From: Rhizophagus irregularis
Lineage: Eukaryota
Reading direction: 5' to 3'
Length of the DNA stretch: 64,000 bases
NCBI RefSeq assembly: GCF_026210795.1
Contig: NC_089429.1
Location: 6,758,001-6,822,000, forward strand
This document shows positions 18,801 through 63,525 of this stretch, in pieces (the first letter of the stretch is position 1; each line of letters opens with the position of its first letter). The notes under the pieces are model-generated. The model was given only the letters and a program-made list of their open reading frames with translations. It did not search any database and had not been told where the DNA came from. A program made the translations under genes and the position numbers.

Positions 18801-18900
18801 TTAATTGCATTACCGAGAAATTGGATACGCCTTTGTTCGAGCGTGGCCGTTTGTGATTGAAGTACGTTGTGATTTTTGATAATGTTTTCTAATCATTTAT
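12801..18900 (-). mobile_element. Decayed non-LTR (LINE) retrotransposon: endonuclease-RT-RNase H-Zn finger, many stops and frameshifts
   Basis: Minus-strand fragments in order: APE endonuclease (IIGDFN ~17830, SDHDI ~17575); RT (KAAGPSNISYE, RPIILLDCFRK, QDLSKAYD, GIIQGEIISPLLW..YYDP, YLDD ~15955); RNase H-like (YSDGS ~14390, KVKAH ~14050); C-terminal CFLC..ETNLHLWQC. (AAAAT)n-like tail at ~12801-12823. The 5' boundary is approximate. Confidence 0.85.
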
Positions 18901-45339: not shown

Positions 45340-45655
45340 TAGAGAGTTGAATTATCAGATGATGAATCTGATTCTTATTCTGATTATAAAGACTTTGATA
45401 ATTCTCTATTTTCAAGTTTTGCAGTACATCAAACTGCCAATGCAGACTATTCTCGTATTCTAATCCAATCCTCTTTTTCATCTTCAAATATAACTTTTAG
45501 AGCTTATTTTCCACCCTGGCAATTCTCTACAAAACTATTCAATTTGAAATCTTAATTTGATAAAGATATTCTTACCCAGTATCCATGTGTTCTATGTAGT
45601 TATTGTTCTCATTTACAATACCCAACAAAAGCAAGATGGGAGTTATATAATGACA
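45340..45655 (+). pseudogene. Decayed Helitron-like Rep/helicase ORF, 5' part (target of the 15-kb insertion)
   Basis: Frame ...YPCVLCSYCSHLQYPTKARWELYND continues in frame at 60696 once the element and one TSD are removed; one internal stop. Confidence 0.55.
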
Positions 45656-45658
45656 GTC

Positions 45659-46137
45659 GTCGGGCTGGTAGTGTGTCTCGCTAGCGCTCACCCCACCTCG
45701 GCCTCGTGGCCTCGCAGTACCTACATCTCCCCTTCATGGGGCAGGGTTACCCAAGATCCGTTACTATCTGTTACTACATCTGTTACTAAAAATATACTAA
45801 AAAACAGATAAAATAAGGAAAAAGAGAGGAAAATACGATAGAATCAGAAGGGAGTAACAGATGTAACAGATGTAACAGATATTTCAGAATAATAGGAGAG
45901 GACACCCCCTCAGAAAAAAGTTTTGATTTTACCCCCCAGATCTGTTACATTCGTTACGATCCGTTACTCTTTCAGGATTCCGTTCGTTATCTTATTGGAG
46001 GCAGTGAGATAACAAACCGAGTGAACAGGTAGGTTAATAACCCCTAGAAGGCCTGTAGATCTGTAGGAGGATAACCGGGTAGGAGCGCGGATCTTTGGAA
46101 AAAACATATTCGGCAATTGAAGATTAGGTAACTATAA
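45659..46137 (+). repeat. Left terminal inverted repeat (479 bp)
   Basis: Reverse complement of 60213-60690; by eye it differs by 3 transitions and a 1-bp indel in a C run. Confidence 0.97.
46115..46124 (+). promoter_or_regulatory. Candidate promoter motif AATTGAAGAT in the left TIR (mirror copy at 60226-60235 on the minus strand)
   Basis: The same or a similar motif lies ~28-52 bp upstream of seven element ORFs (see findings). Confidence 0.6.
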
Positions 46138-46166
46138 ATTAGATCCTGATTCGACAGAACGAAAAA

Positions 46167-48668
46167 ATGACCACTCAAGCTCAAGTTATCCCTAAATTCG
46201 GTGAACAAAAGAAAGCCTTCAGTATCGATGAGCTTAAACGGCTTATTGTCGCTGCAAAGAGTATAAGTGACCTCGATCAAGCCAAGAGGTATCTTTGCAG
46301 TTATTTCATTCCCTGTGCAGATCCTCATGGGGTTTTCTGGTGGGACCCGGATAGTAAAAGTTTGAAACACGTTATTGACAAAAATATTGGTAAACTTATC
46401 CGTCCAATCACGAAGGCATTCTACACACAACCTGAACAAGGACCCTCTCAAAAGACCGAGTTCAACATCTACAAGTGGTTTATGGTCGAGAATACCGATG
46501 TATGTAATGCAACCTGTGATCCCCATAAACAGCGAATCTTCAGATCCTTAACCGGCCAACTCTATCTAAATATCTTTCCGGGATTTCTCCACGTCTTGCG
46601 TCCAATATCCACCTTTGAGTCTACAATTCACCTCGCAGTTAAATTTATCTTCTCTCACATTCAGGAAATCTGGTGTTCGGGTGATTGGAATCTCACTGAG
46701 TATATCATCAAGTGGTTAGCCGGTGTGGCAGCTGGAAGGAAGATGTACTCGATTCTCTATCTAAAATCCGGACAGGGTTGGGGCAAAGGTATTATAACAG
46801 ATTTCATTCAGCGCAGCGTCCTAGGCACTCAACTTGTTTATAAGACCAGCGATCCTCAGACGATTCTTGGAAGTTTCAATGGGCAATTACAGGGTAAGGT
46901 TCTTCTTCTTCTCGAGGAAATGCCCACAGAAAAAAGCCAGTGGAATTCTCTGTATCGCTCTTTGAAAGATAAAGTAACGAGTGATATAATGGAAATCCAC
47001 GAAAAATACAAGACGCCAACACATTACAAAAACTTTATGTCAACTATCGTCCTTACTAACGAAAATGCTCTCAGAGTGGAGAATGATGATAGGTGCACAG
47101 TGTTCTTGGATGTGTCACCATCCCGCAAGGGAGACCTCAACTATTTCAAAAAACTCGGTGACGCTATGAAATACCCAGGCGCCAGTGAGGCGTTCTATGC
47201 TTATTTGAGAGCCATCGTGGATGCTTACCCAGACTTCAATGGAAATCCGCCACCTATGACAACATCCAAACAGGAACATATCATCTCAACTCTCCCACCG
47301 CTATTCCAATTTATAAAGGACACATACCTCGTAATGAAAAATTATATGACCGACCTGCCTGTTCAAGAATTTTATAGGGTATATACTTCATATTGCGAAA
47401 CACATTGTATTTCACCCTTATCAAAGATAAACGCTTCTAGAATCCTATCAAATGAGTTGGCTATAAATAGCAAATTAGTTCGTAAAGATAAGAAACTGAC
47501 CCGTGTCTATAGTATATCCAGGGAGGACCTTTACAAGAAATTCCTCGGAAAAAACTGGATTCATGAAATAGACGAGATAGACATAGAAGGAATAGATGTA
47601 GAGACTTCTAAGAAACCCGCATCTGATCCCAAAGCCTTAGAGAAGTTCTTGGCAAATATATATAGCATTCCTGCTAATAATCCACAAGACGTACAAAAGA
47701 AACTCGCTGAGAAAAAACCCGAACCCGCTGAGGAAAAACCCGCACCTGTAATTCGCAAGACTCCTCCACCGCTTCCACCCAAGCCTGACCACTTAAAAGA
47801 ACGTCAACAAGAGTTAAGGGAAGAACAACCGGATCCCGATGAAGATACTAATGAGTCAGACACCGATGAACCTATAGATAACTTCTCAGACTGTTATCTA
47901 TCTGACGAGGAACCTGACCAAGAAGAACCCACCCCTGAACCAGATGATGACTACGACGTCTTAGACAACTTGTTATCAGACTCGGATACTACAACTGTGG
48001 ACCCAACTCCTGAACAACAACCCGAATCTCCCGCAGAATCTTCTGCATCTGTCACTAAGCCTGACCCAGAACCGGCTCCTGAAGAGCAATTTATCCCAGA
48101 ACCCGACACAGAACCAGAAGTTGACCGGGATCCTGAACCAAAGGAAGGCACTCGAGCACATTGGGCTTGGCATGAAAGACACCGATGGGATCGCAAACCG
48201 TGGGTTAAAAATTCAAAAGACCAGGCCTTCGATGATCTCTACAATACAAGTAAGGAATTATGGGCCAAGTACCAAGACGCGTCAGACGAATATGACTGGG
48301 AAATACTCGCGTTTGAAATAGAGGAATGTCCCACAACGCGTATTGAGGACGAGTACCAGTACTACCTTATGGAGGTAGTAGACTGCTTCAAGGACTGGAT
48401 CGAATATAATGGATACTTACCTAAAATACCTAGCCGTAAAGAACTCGCAGATTTAATAAGAATATACAAGGATAATCGTGATGCCGAGATTATTCCCACC
48501 CCCTCTGGTTATGAAACTATGAGGGCAGATAAGGGTAAAGCGCGAGAGATCCCCGAGGAACGTCCAAAAACTGATATGGAACGTGAATGGGAAGCCGCCA
48601 ATGGACTCATCGATGACTGGGATGAAGAGGATCTTGATCGTGTATGCAGCAAGATTGACTCCTTTTAA
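46167..48668 (+). CDS. D5-like superfamily-3 helicase (primase-helicase family) with winged-helix-like region and long acidic/Pro-rich C-terminus, 833 aa
   Basis: Walker A SGQGWGKG, Walker B LLLLEE, motif C IVLTN, then ENDDRC (usually DRR). No AEP primase motifs recognised. Confidence 0.88.
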   Translation: MTTQAQVIPKFGEQKKAFSIDELKRLIVAAKSISDLDQAKRYLCSYFIPCADPHGVFWWDPDSKSLKHVIDKNIGKLIRPITKAFYTQPEQGPSQKTEFNIYKWFMVENTDVCNATCDPHKQRIFRSLTGQLYLNIFPGFLHVLRPISTFESTIHLAVKFIFSHIQEIWCSGDWNLTEYIIKWLAGVAAGRKMYSILYLKSGQGWGKGIITDFIQRSVLGTQLVYKTSDPQTILGSFNGQLQGKVLLLLEEMPTEKSQWNSLYRSLKDKVTSDIMEIHEKYKTPTHYKNFMSTIVLTNENALRVENDDRCTVFLDVSPSRKGDLNYFKKLGDAMKYPGASEAFYAYLRAIVDAYPDFNGNPPPMTTSKQEHIISTLPPLFQFIKDTYLVMKNYMTDLPVQEFYRVYTSYCETHCISPLSKINASRILSNELAINSKLVRKDKKLTRVYSISREDLYKKFLGKNWIHEIDEIDIEGIDVETSKKPASDPKALEKFLANIYSIPANNPQDVQKKLAEKKPEPAEEKPAPVIRKTPPPLPPKPDHLKERQQELREEQPDPDEDTNESDTDEPIDNFSDCYLSDEEPDQEEPTPEPDDDYDVLDNLLSDSDTTTVDPTPEQQPESPAESSASVTKPDPEPAPEEQFIPEPDTEPEVDRDPEPKEGTRAHWAWHERHRWDRKPWVKNSKDQAFDDLYNTSKELWAKYQDASDEYDWEILAFEIEECPTTRIEDEYQYYLMEVVDCFKDWIEYNGYLPKIPSRKELADLIRIYKDNRDAEIIPTPSGYETMRADKGKAREIPEERPKTDMEREWEAANGLIDDWDEEDLDRVCSKIDSF

Positions 48669-48751
48669 TAAGATAAGCACTTCTTAGTTATCTTATATTT
48701 TTTGTATAAAAAACCTATATTACAACTGAACACAATTCATAAATACATCAA

Positions 48752-50605
48752 ATGGTTTATTCAGAGATTGTCCGTGCTTTACCTACAAGACCGGATATCA
48801 AAGAATTACAGTATTCAGGCGCAAGATTTTCCAGAGGAGCAATAGCAAAACTTGGACAGCGACTCCAATCCCGGTATCCGACACATAAATTTCAGATCCT
48901 GCTCCCCTATGAAAACTGGAAACCCGGTGGATGGACATCAGGAAACCAACCAGCTAGCCTTTTCTCACTCTTGGATCACTACGACGAAGCACAACTACCG
49001 GATGACGCAGACCCTGATTATTTTGAACGATTCATAATTTATGTGAGAGATGCCCCACCGGTTGCAGGAGGTTGCAACGGGGAGCTAAATGATTGCCTGT
49101 ATGAATGCCTGAAATATATCTACGGCACATTCTCTAAAATGCCAAAGTCAATCGAAAAGCCCGAGTATATCAAAAAGGCATTAGGTCTCAATCGTGATGC
49201 TTCCATCCCAGTTTCATGCATGGACAAGGTTGAACAACTCGCAGGAAGTCTCGCAATTAATATTGTGGGGGACATTACCCGAATCTCTAAGAGTAAGTCC
49301 GATAGACGTGCGACTCTCATCCTGTCAGAAGGCCATTACTCCCTCGCGTTAAATCCCGGAAGACTCCACTCCAGTAAATTAGATAAAAAGCGTAATTTAC
49401 CCATTGTATACCATGAAGATGGGACCAATAATGTAGTCACAATATACAACGGCAAAACGGTTAAGTCTTGCACAATTGGGCAGTTTCAAAAAACTAAGAA
49501 TTCCAAGAGTTCTTTCATTCCCGTCGAGAAAAACCGTAAGACTGGGGTATATGAAACTCTCGAAGAAGCATATCAGAGAATCCACGAGGAGCAGAATTCC
49601 TTTCTACAGGAGACAAAGAAGTTCGGTTTAGGAATCGACTTATCATACCATAACTGGTCTTACAAAAGAACGGCTCTCTGGTTATTCGAACGATTAAGTG
49701 TAGGGATTCCAGCCAATGATCCTCTTGACCCGATAGAAGCAGAGTGGTTAAGTGATGCAATGATGGGAGGATTAATCTGGGCAGATAACGAGTGGAAGGG
49801 CTATGGAAGACAGTACGATGCAACAAGTTTATACCCGAGTATTCAACAATCGAATGCAAACTTTCCAATCAGACGGGGTAAATTCCAGACACTTAATGAC
49901 TTTGTTGACCACAGGGGTTATGCCTTGTATGGATTATTCCGTGCCAAGGTAAGTGGGAATAATATTCTCTTCTGACAGAATAAAAGGGGAATCTATACAT
50001 TCATCGACTTACAACGAGCAAAAAAACTTGGTCTCAATATACAGTTAATACAGGATGGGAAGCCAAATGCATTGATATATAATAGAGAAGCGAGAATCCC
50101 TGGAACTGTAATATTCGGTGAGTATGTACACTTCCTCTTCAAAATTAAAAACCAGGGTGGCGTAGCTGGCCGCGTGGCAAAGCGAGTCCTCAACACATTA
50201 TGGGGAGCATTATGCCAGAGGAAGCGTAATTACAAGACACTCACCGCAGATCAAACAGACCCGTTTACATTTCCAGAGGGCCATACACTCGACTCTATCA
50301 TACCAGTAGGATCTGACCAGTGGCGATTCCAGTTCACAAACCCGGGTAATCCCTTCAAAGGTGAGTATCCCAGGATCGCCCCATTCTTATTAGCACGTGG
50401 TCGCAAAATCACATCTGAGGCAATTCAACCATACAAGGATAAAGTACGACGTATCCATACGGATGGATTTATTTTAGAAGAGCAGCCAGATAGCCCCGCG
50501 CTTTTCACTTGTTCAGAGAATGCAGATATGACTCTAAAGACTTTCAAGTTTGAAACCGCGGGATACTGCCATGTGAAAAATGCGAACAAGGTTATCTGGA
50601 CATGA
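48752..50605 (+). pseudogene. polB: Family B DNA polymerase, protein-primed type (617 codons, one in-frame TGA at 49973-49975)
   Basis: ORFs 48752-49975 and 50072-50605 are in one frame separated only by TTC-TGA-CAG. Motifs: MMGG, YDATSLYPS (DxxSLYP), KRVLNTLWG (KxxxNxxYG-like), RIHTDGF (DTD-like). Confidence 0.88.
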
Positions 50606-50698
50606 TTGCTAAGAACTGGTAGGTTTATTTTTTACTGACATATCGTGATGGCATAATTGAATAAACCTATGGGATATGTAATCTTACGAGATACCCAA

Positions 50699-51193
50699 AT
50701 GCAAAACACCGACGGATTAGGTAGACAAGATGACGAAAGTTTCCACGCGTGGGCTAAGCGCATTCAGAATGCTGTGCAATATTATGAGACTTGTAGTAGA
50801 ATAGGTTTTCATAGGCGGCTACCTTATCCAAGGTCTCGTCAAGCTGTATATGCTTATATTGTGCACATTAGGAGAATAGTATCACGACTACCAAATAGGT
50901 GGTACTGTACCTACTGTAAATCTTTTATTGATCGCGGATGGGGAGCCGATGCTTCCATGGATCAAGCGGTACGACTACATTTATATAGTTGCCCAAAGCA
51001 TTTTAATTTCGACTATTATACTCATCATGCTGAAATGATCCAGAAAGCCTTTAGGAGATATATAGAAAGAAGGAACAATAAAGCGGCTAGGATTATCCAG
51101 AAAGTCGCTATCCCCTGGTTATATAGACCAGGCTCTCCATTGATACAAAAGGCCGAGCGACACTTCTACTGCCTCGCAGTATCCCAAGTGTAA
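50699..51193 (+). CDS. Hypothetical protein with Zn-finger-like CxxC..H..C and two IQ-like motifs
   Basis: YCTYCK...LHLYSCPKH; AEMIQKAFRRY and AARIIQK...WLYRPG. ATG 50699 chosen by spacing from the upstream motif (alternative ATG 50669). Confidence 0.7.
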   Translation: MQNTDGLGRQDDESFHAWAKRIQNAVQYYETCSRIGFHRRLPYPRSRQAVYAYIVHIRRIVSRLPNRWYCTYCKSFIDRGWGADASMDQAVRLHLYSCPKHFNFDYYTHHAEMIQKAFRRYIERRNNKAARIIQKVAIPWLYRPGSPLIQKAERHFYCLAVSQV

Positions 51194-51275
51194 ACCCCGA
51201 GGTTCATATTTATTTTTTCTCATTCGAATGAACAGGTAACTGAAGATTTATATTTTTTACAAAGTACAAAGAATC

Positions 51276-51746
51276 ATGTCAACATATACCGAATTCACAA
51301 GCATTGTTAACAGCACTGACAGCACTAGTGAGAAGGTTATTTACGAGGCATCGCGCATTCAGCCTAGTGTTATCTCTGACGAAACTGTCCCCAAGATTAT
51401 CCGCGCATTAAAAGATACTATAGTAGTCGCATTAGTATCTGGGTTTAGCAAAACCAGTTACCTCGTCCAGGACCACGTGAAGTATATCAAGCGAATCCAG
51501 ACGGCAAATTCTCCTGTATCATATGTGAAGTTCGTGGCCAGAAAACTCTTCCCAGATAATGCGGCATATACTGCTAAGATAGCAAAAATCCGCGAATCAT
51601 ACAAGAATAAACAAGCTCTCCTAGATAAGCTTGAGGCCCTCTTCGAATTGTATTATAATGCGACTAAGGACTCATCAACCGGTCCCCCAAAGCGAGCTAT
51701 TACTAAAAACGAGGCTGAGAAAACCTTAACAGAACTTCTTGCATAA
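51276..51746 (+). CDS. Hypothetical protein, 156 aa
   Basis: Intact ORF flanked by the element's upstream motif (51238) and TATTTTTT (51788); no family recognised. Confidence 0.75.
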   Translation: MSTYTEFTSIVNSTDSTSEKVIYEASRIQPSVISDETVPKIIRALKDTIVVALVSGFSKTSYLVQDHVKYIKRIQTANSPVSYVKFVARKLFPDNAAYTAKIAKIRESYKNKQALLDKLEALFELYYNATKDSSTGPPKRAITKNEAEKTLTELLA

Positions 51747-51855
51747 GCGGCTCCTGTGGTCCTACGATTCTGTATGAATTTAATCTATATTTTTTATCCA
51801 TGTGTAATAGGCATACAGTAATTGAAGATAGCTATAGTATAAGTAACATAACATC

Positions 51856-52248
51856 ATGTTGGACCAATTACCAGTAGAAATAGTCGAACGCATTGTCGCA
51901 AAGATCCCGGATACTGACCTTATTGCAGTGAGTAAGGTAGATAGAGTGTGGTGGCAGGAAGTTCGTCAAGAGGCATATAAGAGGTGGAAAAATTATGCCA
52001 CTACGATCGGGTATGTCCGAGCTCTTGGAAAGCCATTCGAAAAAGGGAATGTTGACTGGATAACATTTGAAGATGTAAACGACTTCTATAAAAGATGGAT
52101 AGACCGCCTCACCGAGGATCAGCTTTATATTATGGAGAAAATGCTTAGGAATGGGATGGTCGTGGACCCCCAAGAGAGGGAAACCATAGAGCATGCATTA
52201 AGTGAACATAGATGGGGAGGCGATCCTTGGGGACTGGGAGTGGTATGA
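51856..52248 (+). CDS. F-box protein, 130 aa
   Basis: N-terminal LDQLPVEIVERIVAKIPDTDLIAVSKVDRVW fits the F-box consensus LP.EI...I...L...DL.....V.R.W. Confidence 0.85.
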   Translation: MLDQLPVEIVERIVAKIPDTDLIAVSKVDRVWWQEVRQEAYKRWKNYATTIGYVRALGKPFEKGNVDWITFEDVNDFYKRWIDRLTEDQLYIMEKMLRNGMVVDPQERETIEHALSEHRWGGDPWGLGVV

Positions 52249-52741
52249 ATGGACTCAACAAAAGTAAGCATTTTGTACTTGACTTTCGTAGGAATTACCC
52301 TGCAGAGTCATATTTTTTAGATCCGGCCGGCATTACCGCGTAATCCCGAATTACCGAAAAAGGAAATTTATGTTACACAAGGTTCCAAACGCATTCTTAC
52401 CAAATCGATTTTTGTGGAACGGGTATCGCCCAAAAAGGAAATGATCTACGTACCGCATGAAATCACGTGACACTCTACACATTTGTTCAGGGTATCACGT
52501 GACATGAACTCCGTTCACATTTTCTGTAATATAATCCATAGTTTTCCATGAATGCTTTTTAGGCCAATAATCCAATAACTTATTCATCAGGTATCCTCGT
52601 GTTTTGCGACAAGGACTGATGACCATGTAACCTCATCATCAGGCATCCTCGCATTTTTTGACAAGGACTGATGACGATGTCACTTGGTTATTGTAAATTG
52701 AAGATAACAATTAGGTATGTAGACACGTACAGAAAAAAGAC

Positions 52742-53326
52742 ATGTCATACCCTTATATAACTAATCCTATAACCGGACGTCCAATCCGTGTTGGTGGAGA
52801 TACCTTTAATCGAATAGTTATGGAATCCCATGATTATATCGATGGAAGGCTTGTCCGTAGACAAACCGTACCGCCTCCACCCCAGGAACAACCTGTATAT
52901 TTAAATACAGATACAGGACGCTATATTCAACACGGTACTAGAACGTATCATAGACTGGTTGAGAGTGACTACGAGGTAGTTGAGGACTACTACCTTGTTC
53001 ATTCTGAAGAGGAGGAGCTTATAGAGGAAATCATCAATGAAACACGCTATAATGAGGAAAATCTTGATGGCCAGCGGTTAACTTTCAATGATATACAACA
53101 AATCAGGGCCGCTATTCAGGCTGACCAAGATGAATATGATGATTTTATCTTACAGCAAGATACGACTAATGGGACACCTTCCTCTGGTCCTTCCGGTCGT
53201 CCACGAACTTTGGAGGACCATACCCCGAGACTTGCAGAGCTTAATATTGAGTTGTGTAGGGAATGTCTCATGCCTGTAAGCCCAAGTGACTTAACGGACA
53301 AGTTGTGCAAGGACTGCGCTTCCTAA
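52742..53326 (+). CDS. Protein with two NPxTGRxI-type repeats (2-cysteine-adaptor-like) and a C-terminal CxxC..CxxC, 194 aa
   Basis: ITNPITGRPIRVGGDTFNRI and YLNTDTGRYIQHGTRTYHRL; LCRECL...LCKDCA. Confidence 0.7.
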   Translation: MSYPYITNPITGRPIRVGGDTFNRIVMESHDYIDGRLVRRQTVPPPPQEQPVYLNTDTGRYIQHGTRTYHRLVESDYEVVEDYYLVHSEEEELIEEIINETRYNEENLDGQRLTFNDIQQIRAAIQADQDEYDDFILQQDTTNGTPSSGPSGRPRTLEDHTPRLAELNIELCRECLMPVSPSDLTDKLCKDCAS

Positions 53327-53486
53327 TGGTCAGTCCTCCGGTCCTCCGGTCTTCCGGTCTTTCCAACGGTTGATCCCTTAATGCCAGTTATTTTTTTTTA
53401 TACAAATGACAGGTATTTAAAGATAACAATATATAAAAAAGATTGTGAAGGATACTAAGTGAGCGAATAATCAAAGAAAGATAGCC

Positions 53487-54038
53487 ATGTCAACATCAAT
53501 CATAATAAACCAGTGTCAGAACTGTGGAGTATTCTCTGCAAAAGCGGCATATAGAGGATTATCCAGCGTGTTGTATAGACAGATTATAAAGAAGATTGGT
53601 GACGAGAGTGAACCTTTACAAGCCTTGGGACTTGCCAGGGATAAGTTGGTCCAGATTATCCGTCGGGCAAGTAATGCGGATTTTACGCAATTATTCACAC
53701 AAAGACTAGATATGAAAATTATGGACGGAGATTCATACGAGGATACTAGGAAGTGGCTTCTTGAACAGCTTATAGCCATTGGATGTGACAGTGGGGAAAT
53801 TGCCTTATATCAGTTCTTACAGAATACATACCCGGATGGTATTGACGAACCCTTTACTACATTCTATGAGAACTATGTAAATCATGTAAGAAATCCGATG
53901 ACTAAGAACTTTGCTTCTCGAGCCTTAGGAACTATTGGATTAAAAGCTAGGATGCTACGGATTGACTTCGAAGGACGTAAAAAAAGTGCCATGATTCTTA
54001 GGGCTTCTGCGGAAGAACTTCGCGAGATGGGTTGCTAA
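53487..54038 (+). CDS. Hypothetical protein; C-terminal half resembles the post-ATPase (winged-helix-like) region of the element's own helicase, 183 aa
   Basis: LYQFLQNTY..FYENY..PMTKNFASRAL versus helicase LFQFIKDTY..FYRVY..PLSKINASRIL. Confidence 0.7.
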   Translation: MSTSIIINQCQNCGVFSAKAAYRGLSSVLYRQIIKKIGDESEPLQALGLARDKLVQIIRRASNADFTQLFTQRLDMKIMDGDSYEDTRKWLLEQLIAIGCDSGEIALYQFLQNTYPDGIDEPFTTFYENYVNHVRNPMTKNFASRALGTIGLKARMLRIDFEGRKKSAMILRASAEELREMGC

Positions 54039-55274
54039 AGCAGCCAGATTCTTACAAAATACTATGATCCCTACTCGTAATGCTCGACGGTCCATATGAC
54101 CCTTAGAAAAGATCTGTAAAAGGACCCCGATGCCTTCTATTAATTTTTTATTATCCAAAGGGTGACTAGACTTCAGGACTTCATATCGGGAGAATAACTC
54201 CTTTACGGTCTCAGGTTTTGGAATTTCAGTCTTCGTGGTCCTATCCCGTACTTTCGCTAAGAAGTTTTGGAAGTCTGATCCCAAGGTCTTACCAGATAGT
54301 CCGTAGGCTTCCCAAAAGACGTACTTAATCCAGGTATCTGCGTTCTTAGCTATAACACCAGATACGAGAAGGTGTTTTCTCTCTTTAGGCGATGGATATT
54401 CCCGAGCAAACTCGATTAGCTGGGAGGACTTTTTTGCTTCAGCTACGGCTTTCTGGCCATAGGAACTAAACTTTGATCGAACTGGGTTCAAACTCGGATT
54501 GAACTTTGATCGAACTGGGTTCAAACTCGGATCGAACGGGGATTGAACTGAGATCGAACTAGGATCGAACTGAGATTGATCGGTGATCGAACTGAGACTA
54601 GTATCCCATCTAACCCGAATAGATAACGGATCGCTCTTGGATCTTCTAAGATCAAATACTATAAATTCGCGTTGTAGAGTAAGGTCATCGATTACTGGAG
54701 CTAGTGACTCCGATTCTTCTGTATACTGGCGGATGATCCTCTTAGTATCGGTCAAACTTCCGTGACCTCCATGTAGGGAAATATAATTCACATTTTCACG
54801 AATAGCCTTGGGAATGGTAAAGAATCTTTGGGCCACATAGATACACGAGATATTTTTGTGACGCCCGTGTGTAAAAAATCCAGTGATGAGATCCTGGATT
54901 TTTTTAGGCGCATCCATCAAATCCTCGAAGATTACCACAGTAGCTTGGGTGGAGTTGAAGTCCTTAACATTTGGAATCTCACTATGGGATACTGCGGTAA
55001 ACGGAATTTCTTCTTCTTTGAAAAAATCACGTACGACTGCCCACTTTGGTTCATCGAGGTATCTGCCAACTAGAATTACCGCATCACATAATATGTACCT
55101 TTCGCCATCCTCCTTTGCCTTCTTGTCTCCCATTAACAAATTAATAATCATAGTTGTCTTACCCGAGTCAGAACTTCCTGCTACGGCAAGACGGAAAGGC
55201 CATGATGGGGCAAACTCATTACCCTGTCTCGAGTTGGTCGTGTACTCGTCCAAATTGTATACATAAAGATCCAT
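53955..55274 (-). CDS. A32/FtsK-HerA-type DNA packaging ATPase with C-terminal extension, 439 aa
   Basis: Walker A RLAVAGSSDSGKTT, Walker B VVIFEDL, and the GRHKNISCIYVAQ signature of poxvirus-A32/Polinton ATPases. Confidence 0.9.
   Translation of the reverse strand: MDLYVYNLDEYTTNSRQGNEFAPSWPFRLAVAGSSDSGKTTMIINLLMGDKKAKEDGERYILCDAVILVGRYLDEPKWAVVRDFFKEEEIPFTAVSHSEIPNVKDFNSTQATVVIFEDLMDAPKKIQDLITGFFTHGRHKNISCIYVAQRFFTIPKAIRENVNYISLHGGHGSLTDTKRIIRQYTEESESLAPVIDDLTLQREFIVFDLRRSKSDPLSIRVRWDTSLSSITDQSQFDPSSISVQSPFDPSLNPVRSKFNPSLNPVRSKFSSYGQKAVAEAKKSSQLIEFAREYPSPKERKHLLVSGVIAKNADTWIKYVFWEAYGLSGKTLGSDFQNFLAKVRDRTTKTEIPKPETVKELFSRYEVLKSSHPLDNKKLIEGIGVLLQIFSKGHMDRRALRVGIIVFCKNLAALATHLAKFFRRSPKNHGTFFTSFEVNP
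54469..54596. repeat. Intragenic tandem repeats in the ATPase linker (33-bp unit x2 plus GATCGAAC variants)
   Basis: AACTTTGATCGAACTGGGTTCAAACTCGGAT at 54469 and 54502; encodes the FDPS/FNPSLNPVRSK repeats. Confidence 0.85.
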
Positions 55275-55302
55275 TTGAATTTTATTCTAATTTAGTTTAA
55301 AT

Positions 55303-56010
55303 ATGATGTCGACACCAATTGCAATTTATACTCCTTCAGAGCCTACTGGACCGCCTCCTAGGGATTTGCGTGATATGAATAATATACCATTAGTTGCGGT
55401 AATTAAGGATCTAACAGATTTTTTAACTGTCAGTGATCGCATGGTTGTTAATCGAGATGTACAAAATGCAAACCATCGTCTTAAACATGCTCTTAATTTA
55501 TTAATTCATCGCTGTAGAGAAACATACGAAGAACGCGATATATTAAAAGCAGAACGTGATCGATCTCGAAAAGAACGTGATGAATTACAAGATGAACTCG
55601 AGGTTCAAACGGGTTTGTTAGGTCTTACACAAGATGAGCTAAATAACGTACAAGATACTATTACTAGTTTAGAAGCTAATTTGGCTGAATTGGAACGTGA
55701 GTTTGGTGGTATGCGGACGACTAATCGTCGTCTTCAGCAGCAATATAATCTTATGAGAGGAGAACGTAATAGAGCTATAGGTGAACGTAATAGAGCTATA
55801 GGCGAGCATGATGTGGCACGAAATCAGCTTGTATATGCCAATAATCGGGTTCTTTTTGGAATTCGGACATTGGGACGTCTTAGGAATCGACTTTTCCAAC
55901 AAATAGCCGCTCTGCGTATCCAAGTACAATGGTTTTGGATTAGACAATTGAACCTTCCTCCACCTCCTCTCAACCATCCACAAAATACGATATGGCTGCC
56001 GTTGGTATAG
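55303..56010 (+). CDS. Coiled-coil protein overlapping the start of gag, 235 aa
   Basis: Heptad-rich E/R/L segment, ERNRAIG 21-bp repeats, PPPP near the C-terminus; overlaps the gag ORF by 19 nt. Confidence 0.75.
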   Translation: MMSTPIAIYTPSEPTGPPPRDLRDMNNIPLVAVIKDLTDFLTVSDRMVVNRDVQNANHRLKHALNLLIHRCRETYEERDILKAERDRSRKERDELQDELEVQTGLLGLTQDELNNVQDTITSLEANLAELEREFGGMRTTNRRLQQQYNLMRGERNRAIGERNRAIGEHDVARNQLVYANNRVLFGIRTLGRLRNRLFQQIAALRIQVQWFWIRQLNLPPPPLNHPQNTIWLPLV

Positions 56011-57488
56011 CTGCCCCCATATTTCATGGTCGGGAAGATGAAGATCTTAATCTTTTTATTGATAACTTTTTAGGGTATATTAATACCGTTGGTATTGATC
56101 CATTGGACGATGCCGGTGCGCCTCCTGGTCGGGTGCGAGCGATGGGGGTTCTTCGTAGCTGTATGAGAGATGAAGCGGCGAGGTGGTTTGATGCAGAACT
56201 TACTGGAAAAAATTGGGAACTCTCGAATATTCGGTTAGTGGCTACTGCAAATGGTGGAGCCGGTGCTACTCGCCGAGCGTTCAGAGCTTTAGCTGTTCCT
56301 GAGGTTGCTAATGGATTACATGTTGGTACTTACTTACCCGGGTCTGATGCTGATGTATATTCAAGGGTTGCAGGTAATGCGGCGAGAACCGTTGGAGAGG
56401 CATTTTTCCCATCACGCGCTGATATCATTAGATCGAATTTTAAAGTTGAAGAGCAGTGGAGGCGTGCGGGCGGACGTCCTACTCATCAACCCGTTAATGG
56501 GTTGGGAAATCATGGAGGTCCATTTAATGCTGCTGTCCAGAATCAACCAATAGTCTTACAGGGGATTCTCCTGGATCAAGCATTTATGCATATGCGTACA
56601 AATTTTCCAACCATCGTGGAAGAAAGACTTCAGATACGATTTAGTAATCTTTACCAGGAACAAGGTGAACCTGTTCGATCTTACTATAAGCGAGTTGAGA
56701 GGGCTGGGGATATTGTAGGATATAATCGAATTATGGTTACTGACCAGTTCTATAGAGGACTTTTGCCGGAAAACGTTATTGAAGCTTCCAGAATCGGGGC
56801 GGCGCCTCTTAATATATTAATCGATAGATTGAGTGATCTTGAGCGATGAAAGGGTGAAATGTTCTATGGATTACAAAGGCGCCAGGGTATTGAAAAGGCT
56901 AAAAAAGAGGAATTGGCTGGCTATACTCATCCCGTGACTCCACACGAAGGTGCTGTAATACAAAGGTCGACAGACGTTATTACTCAAGAACGATTACAAG
57001 AATTGCTCAAGGCACAAGCCGAGGAACTTACCAAGAATTTCCAGGCACAATTTAAACAATTACAAGCATCTAAGCCAGTTCGTAAACCACCGGTCTATAG
57101 ACAACAGATTAAACCTGTTCGGCCAAAGCCACGGCCACGCGTTGTTCAGGATCCTCAGGATCCTGATTGGGATGATGGTTATGTAGATCATGATTTTGGT
57201 GATGACCCTGGTGACCCTGATGCTCCTGAGTGGACTAGTGAGGATGATCAACATGTTATTGATCTTATTATGGGATATGAGACGTCTAAAAGATTTCCAA
57301 AGAGACTTCAGAAGGCTAAAGATAGACGCGATGATCTGGAATTAGCCCGAGCAATGAGAAACCTCGATCTTAATGATGATGCTATGGATATTGATACTAA
57401 TACCGCGAGTTTTGATGACTTGAAAATTGTTCCCGATGAGGAAGGTGGTTTTCGGATTTGTGCGGTTCGAAGTACAAAAAAAAAGTAA
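55992..57488 (+). CDS. gag: Ty3/Gypsy-like Gag (capsid) protein, 498 codons with one in-frame TGA at 56847-56849
   Basis: CA-NTD-like APIFHGREDEDLNLFIDNF...LRSCMRDEAARWF; MHR/CTD-like LYQEQGEPVRSYYKRV...DQFYRGL. ORF 56859-57488 is in the same frame after CGA-TGA-AAG-GGT-GAA-ATG. No CCHC knuckle seen. Confidence 0.7.
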
Positions 57489-58207
57489 ACTCGGATAAGG
57501 GTGTAAGTATCTCGAAACTTCTTAAATCTGTTCCAAAAAAATCAGTTAAAATGACTCCTATTAAGATTCCTGTGAAGGTTACTAGTAGTAAGCCCACACT
57601 TATAAAAGCCGTCACCAAAAATGATTCATTAAGTTTATTAAGGTCTGCAGATTTTAGGAAATTACTCCGCGAGATTCTTCGGGAAGAATTAAAGTCTGCT
57701 CGTAAAAGTACGGAGATTCCGAAAGACCTAGTTGAGGAAAAACAAGAAGAGGATATCAGGGAAGATGACCCGATGGATATTGACATAGCTCGTTTAGAGA
57801 ATACTAAAGATCTTTTAGCGCTGGATGGGAAGGTTAATGGGATAGCAATTCAGTGTTTAGCAGACACTTGTGCTAACGCGTCTTTTATTCAGAGGGAAGC
57901 CGCTGAAGAATTAGGGTTGGATATCGACAAGAGTATTACACATAACATATCCGGCGCTCCGGGTTCTGGTAGGACATTCGGCATGGTAAAAGGTGTGTCA
58001 ATCAAACTAACCCCTGATTGTGTAATCACTGAGAATCTCGCGGTTTTAAGCGATTACAAGCATAGGGAGATTGGATTGAGCCGGACGTGTCTGAAACGTT
58101 ACAATTATGATGTCCATGAATCGCGTGAACATATCGCCCTTACTTGTAATGAGAAGAATGTTTTTATCCCGATAGTTTCTGATGTGAATCGAGGAGACAA
58201 AAAATAG
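57458..58207 (+). CDS. Retropepsin-like aspartic protease in the -1 frame relative to gag
   Basis: GKVNGIAIQCLADTCANASFI (hhD[TS]GA-like), flap-like ISGAPG and IGLSRTCL (hLG.D.L-like). No ATG at the ORF start; A9 run at 57476-57484 immediately before the gag stop. Confidence 0.8.
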   Translation: MCGSKYKKKVNSDKGVSISKLLKSVPKKSVKMTPIKIPVKVTSSKPTLIKAVTKNDSLSLLRSADFRKLLREILREELKSARKSTEIPKDLVEEKQEEDIREDDPMDIDIARLENTKDLLALDGKVNGIAIQCLADTCANASFIQREAAEELGLDIDKSITHNISGAPGSGRTFGMVKGVSIKLTPDCVITENLAVLSDYKHREIGLSRTCLKRYNYDVHESREHIALTCNEKNVFIPIVSDVNRGDKK

Positions 58208-58221
58208 GGAATATTTATTTT

Positions 58222-59312
58222 TTATTCCCAAAACTTGCGGATTAAGGCAGGGACATCCTCCTCCAACCGGTCAGCGGGTTCCCAAGTGGCTTCGGTATCT
58301 GGGTATCGTTCCCACTTGACTAGATACTGGTCTTGACCCTTCCTGATGCGATGCCGGAGTATCCGCTCAGGTACAAATCTTTCGGGTTGCCCTCTTATCA
58401 CGGAGTCAGGTGGGGGATGTTCATTTTCTGGAACAATCTGCAACTCTTTTCGGGTGTACGCACATCTGGATACACCTAGACGCCCGTGTGGTCCATCAAG
58501 AAGATACGTAGGAGGCTGTTCGGGTGAGAGGATCATTTTTTTGATGACACGGATATTGGGATTCCATCTTATGTCACCTGTACGAAATTTTCCATGGAGT
58601 TTATTCCTGAGTACTGAAATAGGTTCGTCTAACTTGACTCGGACATGTGTTCCTTCAGAGAGAAGTTCTGTCTTTTTTGACACTTTGGGTGACCCTGTCG
58701 GAATGTCTGGGGGATTTCTCTGCCAGATTTCATCTATTTTATTAACTACATCACGGAAATCTTCTGACCATTCCACGGATGTCACCCCAGTCTTCAACTC
58801 CTGTGCCACCATTCGTTTTAGGAGAGGTTCCTGGATTGCTTGGATGGCTCGTTCAGCGTATGATTGCTGTTTGTGTCTTCCTGGTTCGCCGAACCTCATC
58901 ATTACCCTAGGCTGTTCAGGAAAAAATCACGTACCTGGTCGTTAGTGAATTCTGATCCGGAGTCTGTCTCCAGTCTGTGTGTTGGTGGCTTAATACGATT
59001 TCTTCTGTAGATTTTGACAAACCCGTTTAGAACCCTATTTGCAGTCTTATCCTTTAGGGGTTCTGCATCGACTTGTTTACCCGCGACTTCCACCACTACG
59101 AGGAAATAGTGGAATCCTTTGGGGTCGACTGGCATCTCTGCAAGATCTGCCTGATGTGTTGCATTTGGTTTCCATACAACTACTCGTGGACGCTCTGATG
59201 ACTTCTCCTTTAAGGGCTTTTTATATAGGTTGTAGTGCTCCTCACCTTTTAGAATTCGTGCCGGTACTCTGGAGAGATTGTAGTATTTGTAGTAATTCTC
59301 TAAATGCGACAT
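58222..59312 (-). pseudogene. int: RVE (DDE) integrase with C-terminal chromodomain; 1-bp frameshift near 58905
   Basis: HQADL, YFLVVVE, AEPLKDKT, ETDSGSEF, QSYAERAI (D-D-E); chromodomain PERILRHR..QYLVKWERYPDTEATWEP. One extra G in CTA-GGG-TAATG would join the two ORFs (SLG-VMMRFG). Confidence 0.9.
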
Positions 59313-59356
59313 ATTACGACAAATTAAAGGAAAGATTTCGGACTTCAAATCTTAAG

Positions 59357-59677
59357 ATGACACGATTTTACTGCCTAAAGTGTAAGAAGGAAACCGAGAC
59401 TGCTAGTGAAATACAAGATATGACCACAAATGGCCGCTATCGTTTACATGGTGACTGTGTAGTTTGTGGGATGCATAAGAATACTTTTACTGGGATAGAC
59501 TGGGTTATCAAAAAGAAAACCAAGGAGAAGAAAAAAGAAACTGCGGCTAAAAGACATCAGACGGCGTACAATCGGCAATGCAAAAAACTCGGGCAGAAAA
59601 TCTTAGATTCTGATGACACGTGTAAGCAGTGTATTGATAAATGCCTTAAGGAGGCAAAAAAGAGGAAGACAGATTAG
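59357..59677 (+). CDS. Small basic Zn-ribbon protein (DUF5679-like), 106 aa
   Basis: MTRFYCLKCKKET...TTNGRYRLHGDCVVCG.HK; ATG at 59357 lies within the longer track ORF 59039-59677. Confidence 0.75.
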   Translation: MTRFYCLKCKKETETASEIQDMTTNGRYRLHGDCVVCGMHKNTFTGIDWVIKKKTKEKKKETAAKRHQTAYNRQCKKLGQKILDSDDTCKQCIDKCLKEAKKRKTD

Positions 59678-59686
59678 TACCGCCTT

Positions 59687-60202
59687 CTAAAAGTATTCCT
59701 CATCATCTGAGTCATCGAGAGATACCTCTCCATCATCTGATTCATCATCCGAGTCGTCAGGAGTGCGACCTTCCTTAAGCAATTGGATGTTGTATGTTAT
59801 TTGAGTCCATTTCTCCCAGTCAGACTCTTGCGTTATAAAGCCGCATCTGAGGAGTGCTCTTTCTATTACTACCATCCCTGCAAACCTGGTGTATTTTTTC
59901 TGATCGGCTTCATTGAAATTGTCAATGGCTTCTTTGTAGTAGTCTACTGCCTGTTTGTATACCTCTTCGGCTTCTTTATGCCGCTTCCACAACTCGGCTT
60001 TACAACAGTTATACCAGAGTCTGTTAATCTTGAGATGTTTTCCGAATTCTTTAACCGGAAGGTTTCTGACCATCTCTGCTACTATGTCCGGGTCATTGAG
60101 GGGTGATGCCTGAATTTGGATCCATTTACGGATTCCATAGATGTCTACAAGATCAAGCCCGAGGTCTTCGGCAAGAGAAGTGGCGGCGTGTAAGTTTATC
60201 AT
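59687..60202 (-). CDS. Second, divergent F-box-like protein with acidic tail, 171 aa
   Basis: LNDPDIVAEMVRNLPVKEFGKHLKINRLW resembles an F-box; starts 11 bp inside the right TIR boundary. Confidence 0.65.
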   Translation of the reverse strand: MINLHAATSLAEDLGLDLVDIYGIRKWIQIQASPLNDPDIVAEMVRNLPVKEFGKHLKINRLWYNCCKAELWKRHKEAEEVYKQAVDYYKEAIDNFNEADQKKYTRFAGMVVIERALLRCGFITQESDWEKWTQITYNIQLLKEGRTPDDSDDESDDGEVSLDDSDDEEYF

Positions 60203-60212
60203 TGTATGTTAC

Positions 60213-60690
60213 TTATAGTTACCTAATCTTCAATTGCCGAATATGTTTTTTCCAAAGATCCGCGCTCCTACCCGGTTATCCTCCTACAGATCTACAGGCC
60301 TTCTAGGGGTTATTAACCTACCTGTTCACTCGGTTTGTTATCTCACTGCCTCCAATAAGATAACGAACGGAATCCTGAAAGAGTAACGGATCGTAACGAA
60401 TGTAACAGATCTGGGGGTAAAATCAAAACTTTTTTCTGAGGGGGTGTCCTCTCCTATTATTCTGAAATATCTGTTACATCTGTTACATCTGTTACTCCCT
60501 TCTGATTCTATCGTATTTTCCTCTCTTTTTCCTTATTTTATCTGTTTTTTAGTATATTTTTAGTAACAGATGTAGTAACGGATAGTAACGGATCTTGGAT
60601 AACCCTGCCCCACGAAGGGGAGATGTAGGTACTGCGAGGCCACGAGGCCGAGGTGGGGTGAGCGCTAGCGAGACACACTACCAGCCCGAC
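60213..60690 (-). repeat. Right terminal inverted repeat (478 bp)
   Basis: Reverse complement of 45659-46137. Confidence 0.97.
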
Positions 60691-61793
60691 TGACACTATT
60701 CAATACCCTTTAGAGAAAGTTTACCAAAACAATCCACAAATTAAATTAGTTTTTCATACTGATGATTCTAAACCTAAGCAGATAGCAACATGTTCCTCTT
60801 GCTATAATCCTGTTCCAGCTGAAATTCAAAATGTACCTCCATATCACTGTATCTATCTTTCTTCTATTCATCTTAGCTGTTCATTAGGTCAAACTTCAAA
60901 TAGTAATGCTTATTCAAATTATCATCACTTAACTGGTACTTTTATTGATTTAAAAAATATCAATGCTTTTGCATTATATTCTGGTACTGTTGGTGCTATA
61001 TTAGCCAATAATAATTCAAATTCATGGTATCATTCTTCACTTAATAATGCAGCAACATGGTTATGTGATAATAACCCTTACTTCAGACCATATAAAACTT
61101 TAATTAACTGTGGTACTTGGGATGGACCTCCAGTCATTTTTCCAATTACTTTATCTAGCAATCTTTCTCAAACCCAAGAACAGCCTATATTTAATATTAA
61201 TTCTTGACCTTCTGCAGTAGTATTACCTCCTTATGATTTTGATGCAGAAATACATAATAAAGATTATTATTATTCTCAATTAATAGCAGGATTTTTAACT
61301 GATCCTAATAATAAGGAATTACCAATACCATTTTATAATAAAATATTAAACCACTTCTGTTTCCTGATCTTTTTCCATATAGAAAAGGTTTTTATTTAAA
61401 TGATAAAAATACAAATAGATGAAATTAGGGATGGCAATGGTCATGGTCATTAACCGGTTATGACCAGTCATGACCGTGACTGATATCGGACAGTCAAAGA
61501 CCTCTGACTGACCATTTGACCGACTGGTCTGTCGGTCAAAGGTTCTTGACCGGTTATGACTGACCGATGACCAACCATAACCGACCGTTGCCATCCCTAG
61601 ATGAAATATAGACACTTTAGGCAATTATGCAAAATTTTTACTACTTTGTCCTGATCCTAGATGGCGTTTATCTTGGTATTGGCCTCATTATATTTATCTA
61701 ACACTTGAAAAGTTAAGAAATCATCAAAATAGAACTTGAATATTAAATCAACATAATATTTCTCAATCAAATCAATTAACAACTGCAGATTTG
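60691..61793 (+). pseudogene. Decayed Helitron-like Rep/helicase ORF, continuation
   Basis: [12 protein letters not shown] (cf. ALxWLxxNNPxY), PLLFPDLFPYRKG (cf. FPxLFPxGxG) and CPDPRWR (cf. DxRF) occur in the order seen upstream of Helitron Rep domains; stops and frameshifts present. Confidence 0.65.
61426..61599. mobile_element. hAT-superfamily MITE (174 bp)
   Basis: TIR TAGGGATGGCAA(T)GGTC / GACC(G)TTGCCATCCCTA; 8-bp TSD GATGAAAT (61418-61425, 61600-61607); TGACC subterminal motifs. Confidence 0.93.
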
Positions 61794-62541: not shown

Positions 62542-63525
62542 CACTACCCTTCCAAAAGTATCCGGTCAAATAATAAAGATTATATTTTATTAATAATAAT
62601 TAGTATTTAGTTGGCCATCCATTGTTTTTAATGCATGCTTCAATTCGATGTGGCATGCTCTCAATTAAATTAATGTAAGTTTCGGGTGGGATTCTTTCCC
62701 ACTCATCTTGCAATACTTCTTCAAGTTCACGAAAATTCTTTGGATGTGTAGATCATTTTTGAAGTCTTCGTTCAAGTTCATGCCACAAATGTTCAATAGG
62801 ATTAAGATCCGGGGATTGTGAAGGCCAATCTGGAAGAATCTTAATCTTTTTCTGTACAATCCAATTCACAGGTCGAAAAGTGAAAAATCAGGCATCAATC
62901 AGTCACCAATCGGTCACCAATCAGGTACCTGATTGGTGACCGATTGGTGACTGATTGGCATTTTCGCCTAATACGTCGCCAATCAGGCAGTTTGCTAACT
63001 TTTGATTCAGTGATCAGAAAAAGATGAAATATAGCTCATTGGAATCGTCTCAATGAGACGAATCTAATGGTAGTAAAATCACATTTCTAGGATTAATACT
63101 TGATGAGAAATTAAGTAAAATATAAAATAAAAATGTATCATTTATATTTTATTTAATTTTTTATTAACTATTAATCCTAGAGATGCGATTTTACTACCAT
63201 TAGATTCGTCTTGTTGAGATGATTCCGATTAGCTATATTTCATCCTTTTCTGATCACTGGATCAAAAGTTAGCAAACTGCCTGATTGGTGACTGATTGAT
63301 GCCTGATTTTTCACTTTTCGACCTGTGATTTTTAACATCTCTTGCGGTATGAACTGGAGCATTGTCATCCTGAAATGCGTAATGTTGCCTGTGATGTTTT
63401 GATCGAATGAATGGCAGTAAATTTTTTTCTAAAATATTAATATAATCTAACCTATTCATTTTACCATCTACTTTTACCAATGGTCCCAGTCCTTTTCCTG
63501 AAAAGCATCCCCACATCGTCATAAC
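62542..63525 (-). mobile_element. Tc1-family transposon 3' part (DD34E transposase remnant) with nested insertions
   Basis: MWGCFS...QDDNAPVH; after removing 62867-63327 the frame reads [32 protein letters not shown]...SMPHRIEACIKNNGWPTKY*. Likely terminus TA|CACTACCCTTCCAAAAG at 62542. Confidence 0.9.
62867..63327. mobile_element. Foldback MITE with CAC termini and 3-bp TSD (CACTA/CMC-like), 461 bp
   Basis: CACAGGTCGAAAAGTGAAAAATCAGGCATCAATCAGTCACCAATC and its reverse complement at the ends; the arms pair over most of the length; TSD ATT (62864-62866, 63328-63330). Confidence 0.9.

Follow-up and report, generated by a model that had tools for sequence, protein, structure and literature searches.

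Maverick/Polinton elements carry 6-bp target-site duplications and 5′-AG termini, and one of them, from Glomus intraradices (Rhizophagus irregularis), was reportedly described by Kapitonov and Jurka in 2006. Here we analyse a 15.0-kb element at positions 45656-60690 of a 64,000-nucleotide stretch of R. irregularis contig NC_089429.1 (the window, to which plain coordinates refer). It is integrated Maverick/Polinton-like DNA, probably of the same family as the Glomus/Rhizophagus Polinton, for which a protein-primed DNA polymerase (pPolB), an rve integrase, an A32 ATPase, terminal inverted repeats (TIRs) and no detectable major capsid protein are reported from the same host (PMC7805220, PMC11296320, 10.64898/2026.06.19.733378). 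In their accessible parts, these accounts give no promoter or terminator grammar, no giant-virus link and no Gag-protease block.

Other described systems resemble the element in part, as judged from the accessible portions of the reports. PgVV-14T (Gezel-14T), a Polinton-like virophage of Phaeocystis globosa virus, uses its helper's early AAAATTGA-type promoter ahead of its polymerase and other genes, has monocistronic units and lacks an RNA polymerase (10.1101/2022.07.28.501842); unlike the present element, it has jelly-roll capsids, TVpol, a tyrosine recombinase, an algal host, a mesomimivirus helper and experimentally demonstrated dependence. Mavirus combines pPolB and an rve integrase with nuclear integration and reactivation by a giant virus (PMC4409740, PMC8547959), but it has a virophage capsid, a cysteine protease, mainly the helper's late promoter and a protist host. 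The transpoviron pltv of pacmanvirus lostcity is linear and TIR-ended, has an Asfarviridae-like helper and carries an early AAAATTGA before its helicase, the helper using a TTTATTTTTTA 3′ motif (PMC11788076); however, it measures 7 kb, is episomal in amoebae and lacks polymerase, integrase, ATPase and capsid. The element, at 15 kb, is integrated and encodes pPolB, integrase and ATPase, which does not fit the transpoviron-like alternative suggested by a first-pass annotation of the window. Finally, pGKL1/2, virus-like elements (VLEs) of yeast, are fungal, linear, pPolB-bearing and equipped with a pox-like promoter 20-40 nt before the ATG (PMC6211774), whereas they are cytoplasmic, have a helper-borne polymerase and hairpin terminators, and lack integrase and ATPase.

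The replication and accessory genes of the element are preceded by a short core, AAYTGAA, and followed by a T run. We consider it probable, at roughly two chances in three, that these signals are an early promoter and a terminator for the RNA polymerase of an Asfarviridae-related giant virus, and that the element is a virophage-like parasite, silent until infection. A nucleocytovirus polymerase and a virophage-like parasite had been proposed in the first-pass annotation from the upstream motif; that proposal gains support from the match of both core and T run to pacmanvirus and African swine fever virus (ASFV) and from an endogenous giant virus of the host. The element has in common with giant-virus-dependent elements a promoter and a 3′ signal of helper type and the lack of an RNA polymerase gene.

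The upstream core and the downstream T run

Seven upstream motifs, 28-52 nt from the start codon, had been listed for the element. All of them are present, letter for letter, and the spacing was borne out (33 nt for the minus-strand site), but only six are independent, since one TIR sequence accounts for both 46115 and 60226-60235. The cores are:

46115-46121, plus strand: AATTGAA, 52 nt before the helicase ATG, within the TIR
48724-48730, plus strand: AACTGAA, 28 nt before the pPolB ATG (26-36 nt in 13 of 13 scored pPolB genes)
50655-50661, plus strand: AATTGAA, 44 nt before ATG 50699 (accessory gene o3)
51238-51244, plus strand: AACTGAA, 38 nt before conserved gene o4
51820-51826, plus strand: AATTGAA, 36 nt before the F-box-like gene
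52696-52702, plus strand: AATTGAA, 46 nt before the gene with a 2C_adapt-like N-terminus
60229-60235, minus strand: AATTGAA, in the right TIR, same sequence as at 46115

Measured against dinucleotide shuffles, the expected enrichment held for the 10-mer AAYTGAAGAT (4 occurrences vs 0.16 expected, equalled in none of 300 shuffles) but failed for the 7-mer AAYTGAA, whose number in the element is that of chance (7 vs 7.3). Its position is not random: the sense-strand windows 15-70 nt upstream of starts cover 2.7% of the element and hold six of the seven unique hits (p about 3e-9). The GAT extension is limited to close copies, and the family core is A(A/T)YTRAA. The remaining unique hit, AATTGAAC at 55946, falls inside the coiled-coil open reading frame (ORF), 46 nt upstream of the Gag ATG, and is missing in both relatives examined (L011, L033). 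The first-pass annotation had seen no motif before the ATPase, coiled-coil/gag, integrase and zinc-ribbon genes. The gene at 53487 has a degenerate copy only (ATTTAAAGAT at 53415, 72 nt upstream), while most of its homologues carry AATTGAA or AATTAAA.

The family was examined with 60 early-block and 13 late-block gene starts, hand-picked from the window and 29 loci near it. Early-block picks have a homologous N-terminus or are orphan ORFs that are not nested; loci nearly identical to others were excluded, as was the second TIR site of the window. The early block comprises replication and accessory genes and the late block packaging and integration genes, classes that we presume to be early and late from gene function and signals, not from timing. 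AAYTGAA was found 15-70 nt upstream of 36 of the 60 early-block genes, against 1.8 in shuffles (maximum 6 in 500), and of 1 of the 13 late-block genes, in keeping with the two gene classes anticipated in the first-pass annotation; the looser WWYTGAA gave 45/60 (6.7 in shuffles) and 3/13. When similar upstream regions were merged, AAYTGAA remained in 23 of 32 and A(A/T)YTRAA in 29 of 32, with 0/32 and 2/32 on the reverse strand. Anchored sites lie 26-68 nt from the ATG in 56 of 57 cases (median 38), and the core is depleted inside coding regions (6 vs 20). Downstream of it, TA peaks at +20 (60%) and +24 (62%) from its first base, other positions reaching 2-35%.

These peaks may mark the site of initiation. 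Vaccinia virus and yeast VLE transcripts are reported to start 11-12 nt downstream of an element of 15 nt whose positions 6-8 are TGA (PMC6211774, in part), a geometry that, applied to the core, would place the start near +24; the ASFV early initiator is given as TA(+1)NA in the portion of PMC7163114 consulted. The upstream A run of the AAAATTGA-type promoter is relaxed in the element family. No late-promoter consensus could be derived from the 13 late-block regions. The two late divergent pairs, ATPase/coiled-coil and integrase/DUF5679, have spacers of 28 and 44 nt, which seem cramped for two RNA polymerase II (Pol II) promoters.

Two other readings of the upstream letters were dropped: short introns suggested by GT..AG-like words after the motif, which would be 15 nt or less and are not conserved, and a Pol II TATA box at TATAA, a word that in two genes stands 15-18 nt from the ATG.

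The T run is the second half of the grammar and was absent from the first-pass annotation. Of 62 early-block stops, 44 have TATTTTTT in the 100 nt that follow, compared with 3 on the reverse strand and 3.0 in shuffles; a T6 tract of any kind follows 54 of the 62, and 6 of 10 late-block stops. The tracts in the window are:

48698-48703, plus strand: TA-T6 tract, predicted helicase terminator
50628-50633, plus strand: TTTA-T6-A tract after pPolB, predicted terminator, fitting the core of the pacmanvirus 3′ motif
51213-51218, plus strand: T6 tract after o3
51790-51795, plus strand: T6 tract after o4
52313-52318, plus strand: T6 tract after the F-box-like gene
53391-53399, plus strand: T9 tract after the 2C_adapt-like gene
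58199-58223, no strand: convergent protease/integrase junction where each strand bears a T6 tract and no promoter is near; same in L011
59656-59661, minus strand: T6 tract of accessory gene o16

Because each strand has its own T run at this convergent junction in both the window and L011, the tract is not an upstream promoter element. T runs are also avoided within genes in a strand-specific manner. Across 53 early coding sequences, coding-strand T5 runs number 19 against 78.8 +/- 6.6 in synonymous shuffles and T6 runs 3 against 18.3, whereas A5 runs are near expectation (289 vs 314); the early genes of the window have no T5 (4.2 expected). The controls showed little such depletion, with 9 T5 runs against 12.4 in the late block and 11 against 10.1 in eight host-side ORFs. 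Both the magnitude of the effect and its strand bias fit a polymerase that stops at T runs, its significance being overstated by the relatedness of the homologues. Family-wide conservation, a TA element at fixed distance and a poly(T) 3′ signal avoided in coding strands together uphold the promoter-like reading of the upstream motif. ASFV is reported to terminate at poly(T), chiefly in early genes, and pacmanvirus lostcity to carry AAAATTGA before 209 ORFs and WWTTTATTTTTTAWW after 221 (PMC11788076; both sources in part). The core and T-run grammar matches that of pacmanvirus and ASFV, and the core AATTGAA has its spacing, too, in common with pacmanvirus.

Element anatomy and the Gag-protease block

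The element forms a 42% GC island within 25% GC DNA and is bounded by TIRs of 486 nt that differ at fewer than 2% of positions, the right end having one GTC fewer than the left. The best fit for target-site duplication and termini is a 5-bp TGACA with GTC termini; contigs of other copies leave the left boundary uncertain by 1 base (45655/45656). At the TIR edge, contig depth from four DNA runs climbs by at least two orders of magnitude and alternative flanks appear. Among the best 120 polymerase homologues listed, the majority are R. irregularis proteins by annotation, with up to 94% identity over nearly the full query. With so many homologues and such TIR-inward depth joined to other flanks, the element is a multicopy family in a Rhizophagus-type genome.

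The Polinton hallmarks are present: pPolB (PF03175), rve integrase, A32-type ATPase, long TIRs and a size within the 15-20 kb class. The full gene set comprises a DUF5906 helicase, pPolB, six small accessory genes, the ATPase, coiled-coil, Gag-like and aspartic protease genes, an rve-chromodomain integrase and a DUF5679 gene. In the window copy, the polymerase, Gag and integrase contain in-frame stops. The features outside the Gag-protease block are:

45651-45655, no strand: apparent left target-site duplication copy, TGACA, identical to the 5 bases after the right end
45656-46144, plus strand: left TIR, beginning GTCGTC, with GTTAC/GTAAC repeats and the first candidate promoter inside; depth jump at its edge
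46167-48668, plus strand: superfamily-3-type helicase (DUF5906, E 1.6e-16) with an acidic C-terminal tail
48752-50605, plus strand: pPolB (PF03175), one in-frame stop
50699-51193, plus strand: accessory gene o3; IQ-like motif in a homologue
51276-51746, plus strand: conserved gene o4, without Pfam family
51856-52248, plus strand: F-box-like gene; weak match here, above cut-off in homologues
52742-53326, plus strand: gene with 2C_adapt-like N-terminus (E 9e-4, under the Pfam cut-off)
53487-54038, plus strand: conserved gene o7, possibly with a D5-C-terminal-like DNA-binding domain (a lead only, score 0.89)
53955-55274, minus strand: A32-type packaging ATPase (Pox_A32, E 2.8e-10)
58222-59312, minus strand: rve integrase with C-terminal chromodomain; in-frame stop near 58902
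59357-59677, plus strand: DUF5679 zinc-ribbon gene, 44-nt spacer to the divergent integrase
59687-60202, minus strand: accessory gene o16 (from the ORF list), apparently driven from the right TIR
60206-60690, minus strand: right TIR, from TIR comparison
60691-60695, no strand: apparent right target-site duplication copy, TGACA

As the first-pass annotation had stated, no RNA polymerase gene was found between the TIRs (ORFs and Pfam), and introns were absent from alignments of 34 pPolB proteins picked for full length. The integrase of L011 is a single ORF of 364 amino acids with rve and chromo domains, and that of the window is 39-41% identical to integrases of the Polinton-like contigs L045 and L049. 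Scanning with a polymerase alignment gave 68 loci in metagenomes and 3 in viral contigs, the latter having given no match with a single pPolB query; an ATPase scan gave nine distant loci. The 20 full-length polymerases of the window group form one clade (SH-aLRT 99, in a quick tree with long branches, for clade use only), whose members reach down to about 35-45% identity.

Three smaller observations concern the element DNA. GTTAC/GTAAC repeats at 9-14 nt spacing within the TIR (45746-45963) are possible origin iterons, an 11-nt tandem array lies inside the ATPase gene (54469-54589), and related copies in L031 (about 935) and L033 (about 180) split just before TGGTCGG, which suggests a TG rather than a GTC terminus in that subfamily.

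The slot adjacent to the ATPase is occupied by coiled-coil, Gag and aspartic protease genes in the window (55303-58207) and in L011 (5995-9423), and by the same genes to the Gag end in L033 (7976-10736):

55303-56010, plus strand: coiled-coil gene, 28-nt spacer to the divergent ATPase, overlapping the Gag start
55992-57488, plus strand: Gag-like gene interrupted by a stop at 56847; fold predicted to be that of a retroviral capsid, with no zinc knuckle seen
57476-57484, plus strand: A9 run closely preceding the Gag stop, putative site of -1 ribosomal frameshifting to the protease frame
57489-58207, plus strand: retroviral-type aspartic protease, -1 frame

In all three elements the coiled-coil C-terminus IWL(P)L overlaps the Gag ATG. 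Gag is one ORF of about 440-480 amino acids in relatives. In 3 of 3 junction-spanning elements it terminates with a run of nine A's and a stop, and the frame that continues open is at -1; in the window and L011 this frame is the protease. Hairpins downstream of the slippery run are not strong (-7.6 to -14.6 kcal/mol). The nearest clusters of Gag in Atlas are Retrotrans_gag, a family matched by 6 of 25 longer Gag homologues scanned, and a profile search reached PEG10 at E 0.0025. The Gag model (predicted local distance difference test, pLDDT, 89.7) had only retroviral capsids or PEG10 among the Foldseek matches listed, headed by the HIV capsid protein and the PEG10 capsid-like domain (E 0.01-0.07, none below 0.001; probability about 1.0). 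Gag is thus predicted to have a retroviral capsid fold.

The block resembles that of Ty3/gypsy elements in its capsid-like fold, aspartic protease and slippery run before the Gag stop. Unlike them, the element has no reverse transcriptase, RNase H or long terminal repeats (ORF Pfam scan and repeat search), no zinc knuckle was seen in its Gag, and its integrase lies on the opposite strand. Among 16 ORFs, no Pfam hit was obtained for a double jelly-roll capsid, penton or adenoviral-type cysteine protease (o3, o4, o7 and o16 were not folded), and every element ORF above 300 amino acids is otherwise assigned; virophage-type major and minor capsid proteins are absent from the element and present in the distant relative L071. 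The block would offer an explanation for the missing capsid gene of the Rhizophagus Polinton (PMC7805220, in part), and if Gag forms DNA-filled particles, two capsid lineages usually treated apart would be joined. No Gag-bearing Polinton and no promoter analysis of the Rhizophagus Polinton turned up in a literature search, which saw its sources in part and did not extend to the original 2006 description or Repbase. Within that limited coverage the Gag-bearing Polinton and its promoter and terminator grammar are new, a Polinton of Rhizophagus being already known.

Separately, a short extra Retrotrans_gag-like ORF lies between polymerase and o4, in the early block, in L008 (2286-2891).

A candidate helper and the competing explanations

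A region of 1.5 Mb related to Asfarviridae, with RNA polymerase and capping genes, is reported from R. irregularis 4401; all five strains of the species are said to retain 15-33 giant-virus-type PolB copies, and no major capsid gene was found in them (PMC10640383, accessible parts). We compared the upstream signals with this endogenous virus, as the first-pass annotation had proposed, scoring rows by hand and by eye. AAAATTGAA has 58 hits on both strands, scorable where at least 39 bases were visible downstream in the 60-nt row; an ATG stands 26-36 nt past it in 11 of 21 scorable rows (7/11 and 4/10 in two batches). A control word with G changed to C gave 44 hits, of which 30 were seen, 12 were scorable and 1 passed, two others missing by one base (Fisher p 0.013). 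The comparison thus bears out the core at the same spacing, though not an enrichment in bulk: AATTGAA occurs 142+164 times against 328+317 for TGAAATT, and AAAATTGAA 58 times against 44 for its control. For TAATTGAA, 30 of 79 hits were seen and 7 were scorable, 5 with an ATG, two of these in repeats. One such ATG opens about 230 codons, with a T8 run about 20 nt past the stop (by eye). An early impression that GTAATTGAA is enriched did not hold (29/306).

Two observations stand beside this comparison. A long helicase-like ORF of the endogenous virus, in the supplement of PMC10640383, has TATATA before it and T6 after it, which fits asfuvirus late-gene signals (by eye). In the family member L036, a TATA-binding protein (TBP)-like gene (1644-2402, minus strand; Pfam TBP E 1.7e-6, PDB E 0.003) lies behind a AAAATTGAA promoter, and was possibly taken from the helper virus.

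According to the proposed cycle, an asfuvirus-type early factor would bind the core, and transcription would begin at an A about 21 or 25 nt from where the core starts and stop at the T run, each early gene yielding one short intron-less mRNA. The helicase and pPolB would replicate the linear DNA, starting at the TIRs that end it. Later expression from compact, AT-rich divergent promoters would yield the ATPase, coiled-coil, Gag, integrase and zinc-ribbon products and, through the -1 frameshift, Gag-protease, and the chromodomain integrase would place new copies in the host nuclear genome, as in mavirus. If this is true, the long-known capsid-less fungal Polinton is tied to a helper, infection of arbuscular mycorrhizal fungi by Asfarviridae-related giant viruses is ongoing or recent, and the fungi harbour an integrated parasite of such viruses. 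The model makes predictions at the level of single bases, namely starts at +21/+25 and ends at the T run, and would supply a marker for finding the helper.

Several points weigh against a giant-virus polymerase as the reader of these signals. The transcription starts and ends are predicted ones, and a cytoplasmic viral polymerase would have to reach a nuclear copy. The window copy has its three stopped core genes. Exact AAAATTGA, the Mimivirus/pacmanvirus octamer, precedes 1 of the 60 early-block genes and none in the window element, the exact pacmanvirus 3′ 15-mer follows only 1 of 62, and ATTTGAA, a variant used in relatives, stands before two late-block genes of the window (the coiled-coil gene, at 30 nt, and the integrase, at 38 nt). 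Being homologous, the genes are not independent, and the family counts look more significant than they are. Bulk counts of the words show no enrichment in the endogenous virus, the second AAAATTGAA batch alone is not significant (p 0.096), the control has its two near misses and two of the five hits of TAATTGAA resemble repeats, all counted by eye; the full virus is present in one of five strains, degraded, and no live helper is known. Of about 11 million reads in each of four RNA runs, 152-265 matched, most of them 90-95% alike; they have no bearing on start sites and are not taken as silence: 82-97% of them continue into unlike sequence, no start or end clusters were seen, and one joint has AC..TG ends.

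Could the host itself read these signals? The element would then be an autonomous nuclear transposon transcribed by Pol II, with AATTGAA as the site of a host or element factor and the T tract as a U-rich polyadenylation element. It is nuclear and multicopy, also in strains without the large endogenous virus, its integrase bears a chromodomain, its conserved small genes (o4, o7, DUF5679) could act as regulators, and one relative has the TBP-like gene. However, T-run avoidance is strong and strand-specific in its coding regions and not in the eight host-side ORFs, the core comes as near as 26 nt to the ATG, the pPolB alignments are intron-free, and core and spacing recur in the giant-virus region, and we regard this explanation as improbable. 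Slightly less probable still is a helper in the form of a cytoplasmic VLE plasmid polymerase, with the element as its non-autonomous passenger. The VLE promoter, ATNTGA 20-40 nt before the ATG, is akin to the poxvirus early element (PMC6211774), and helper-type VLEs occur in Mucoromycota (PMC13348850; both in part). ATNTGA nevertheless matches only 10 of the 60 upstream regions, against 32 for AATTGA; VLE transcripts are reported to end at stem-loops (PMC6211774, same portion), whereas element ends are marked by a bare T run (hairpins were not folded systematically); VLE mRNAs start at a TAAA-type slippage initiator, and the element peak is TA-nn-TA. The accessible part of PMC13348850 has no mention of 'Glomero', and an Asfarviridae-related virus is documented in R. 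irregularis.

Just as unlikely, in our estimate, is that the signals are of giant-virus type but ancestral, in a lineage that now persists or decays without a helper. The broken window copy would suit this, as would the sole large viral region known being a degraded relic; but the signals are retained across the pPolB clade down to its 35-45% identity limit, they also precede lineage-specific accessory genes, and TIRs so alike point to recent activity under the same grammar. The virophage-like parasite of an Asfarviridae-related virus thus remains our preferred reading. A bolder form of it, which we hold to be doubtful, is a virophage-like DNA virus of new build in arbuscular mycorrhizal fungi: a Polinton transcribed by a fungal asfuvirus would have lost its jelly-roll capsid and, by means of its A32 ATPase, would package double-stranded DNA into a shell of retrotransposon-derived Gag that the frameshift protease matures, its many integrated copies serving as an inducible defence against giant viruses.

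Distant relatives and neighbouring DNA

The more distant relatives L070 and L071 have RCTTAA before helicase and polymerase. More broadly, L070, L071, L051, L059 and L046 show RCTTAA(AG) before the helicase, the polymerase or their neighbours, with TCTA near several other starts, and by these motifs the distant relatives appear to use a different two-class code on the same replication module. The pPolB-helicase-integrase module recurs in L071, a virophage with Sputnik-type capsid genes: its major and minor capsid genes (14119-16262) accompany pPolB, helicase and an rve-chromo integrase in a mavirus-like hybrid.

Outside the element, what is probably a decayed DNA transposon lies at 62863-63522 of the window, where inverted repeats (157 and 54 nt) accompany a perfect palindrome of 62 nt and a short fragment of a transposase-like ORF. 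Fragmented minus-strand ORFs at 13000-19000 resemble, by eye, a decayed non-LTR retroelement, and two HMG-box-like host ORFs, likewise read by eye, lie at 24599-25351 and 32753-33340.

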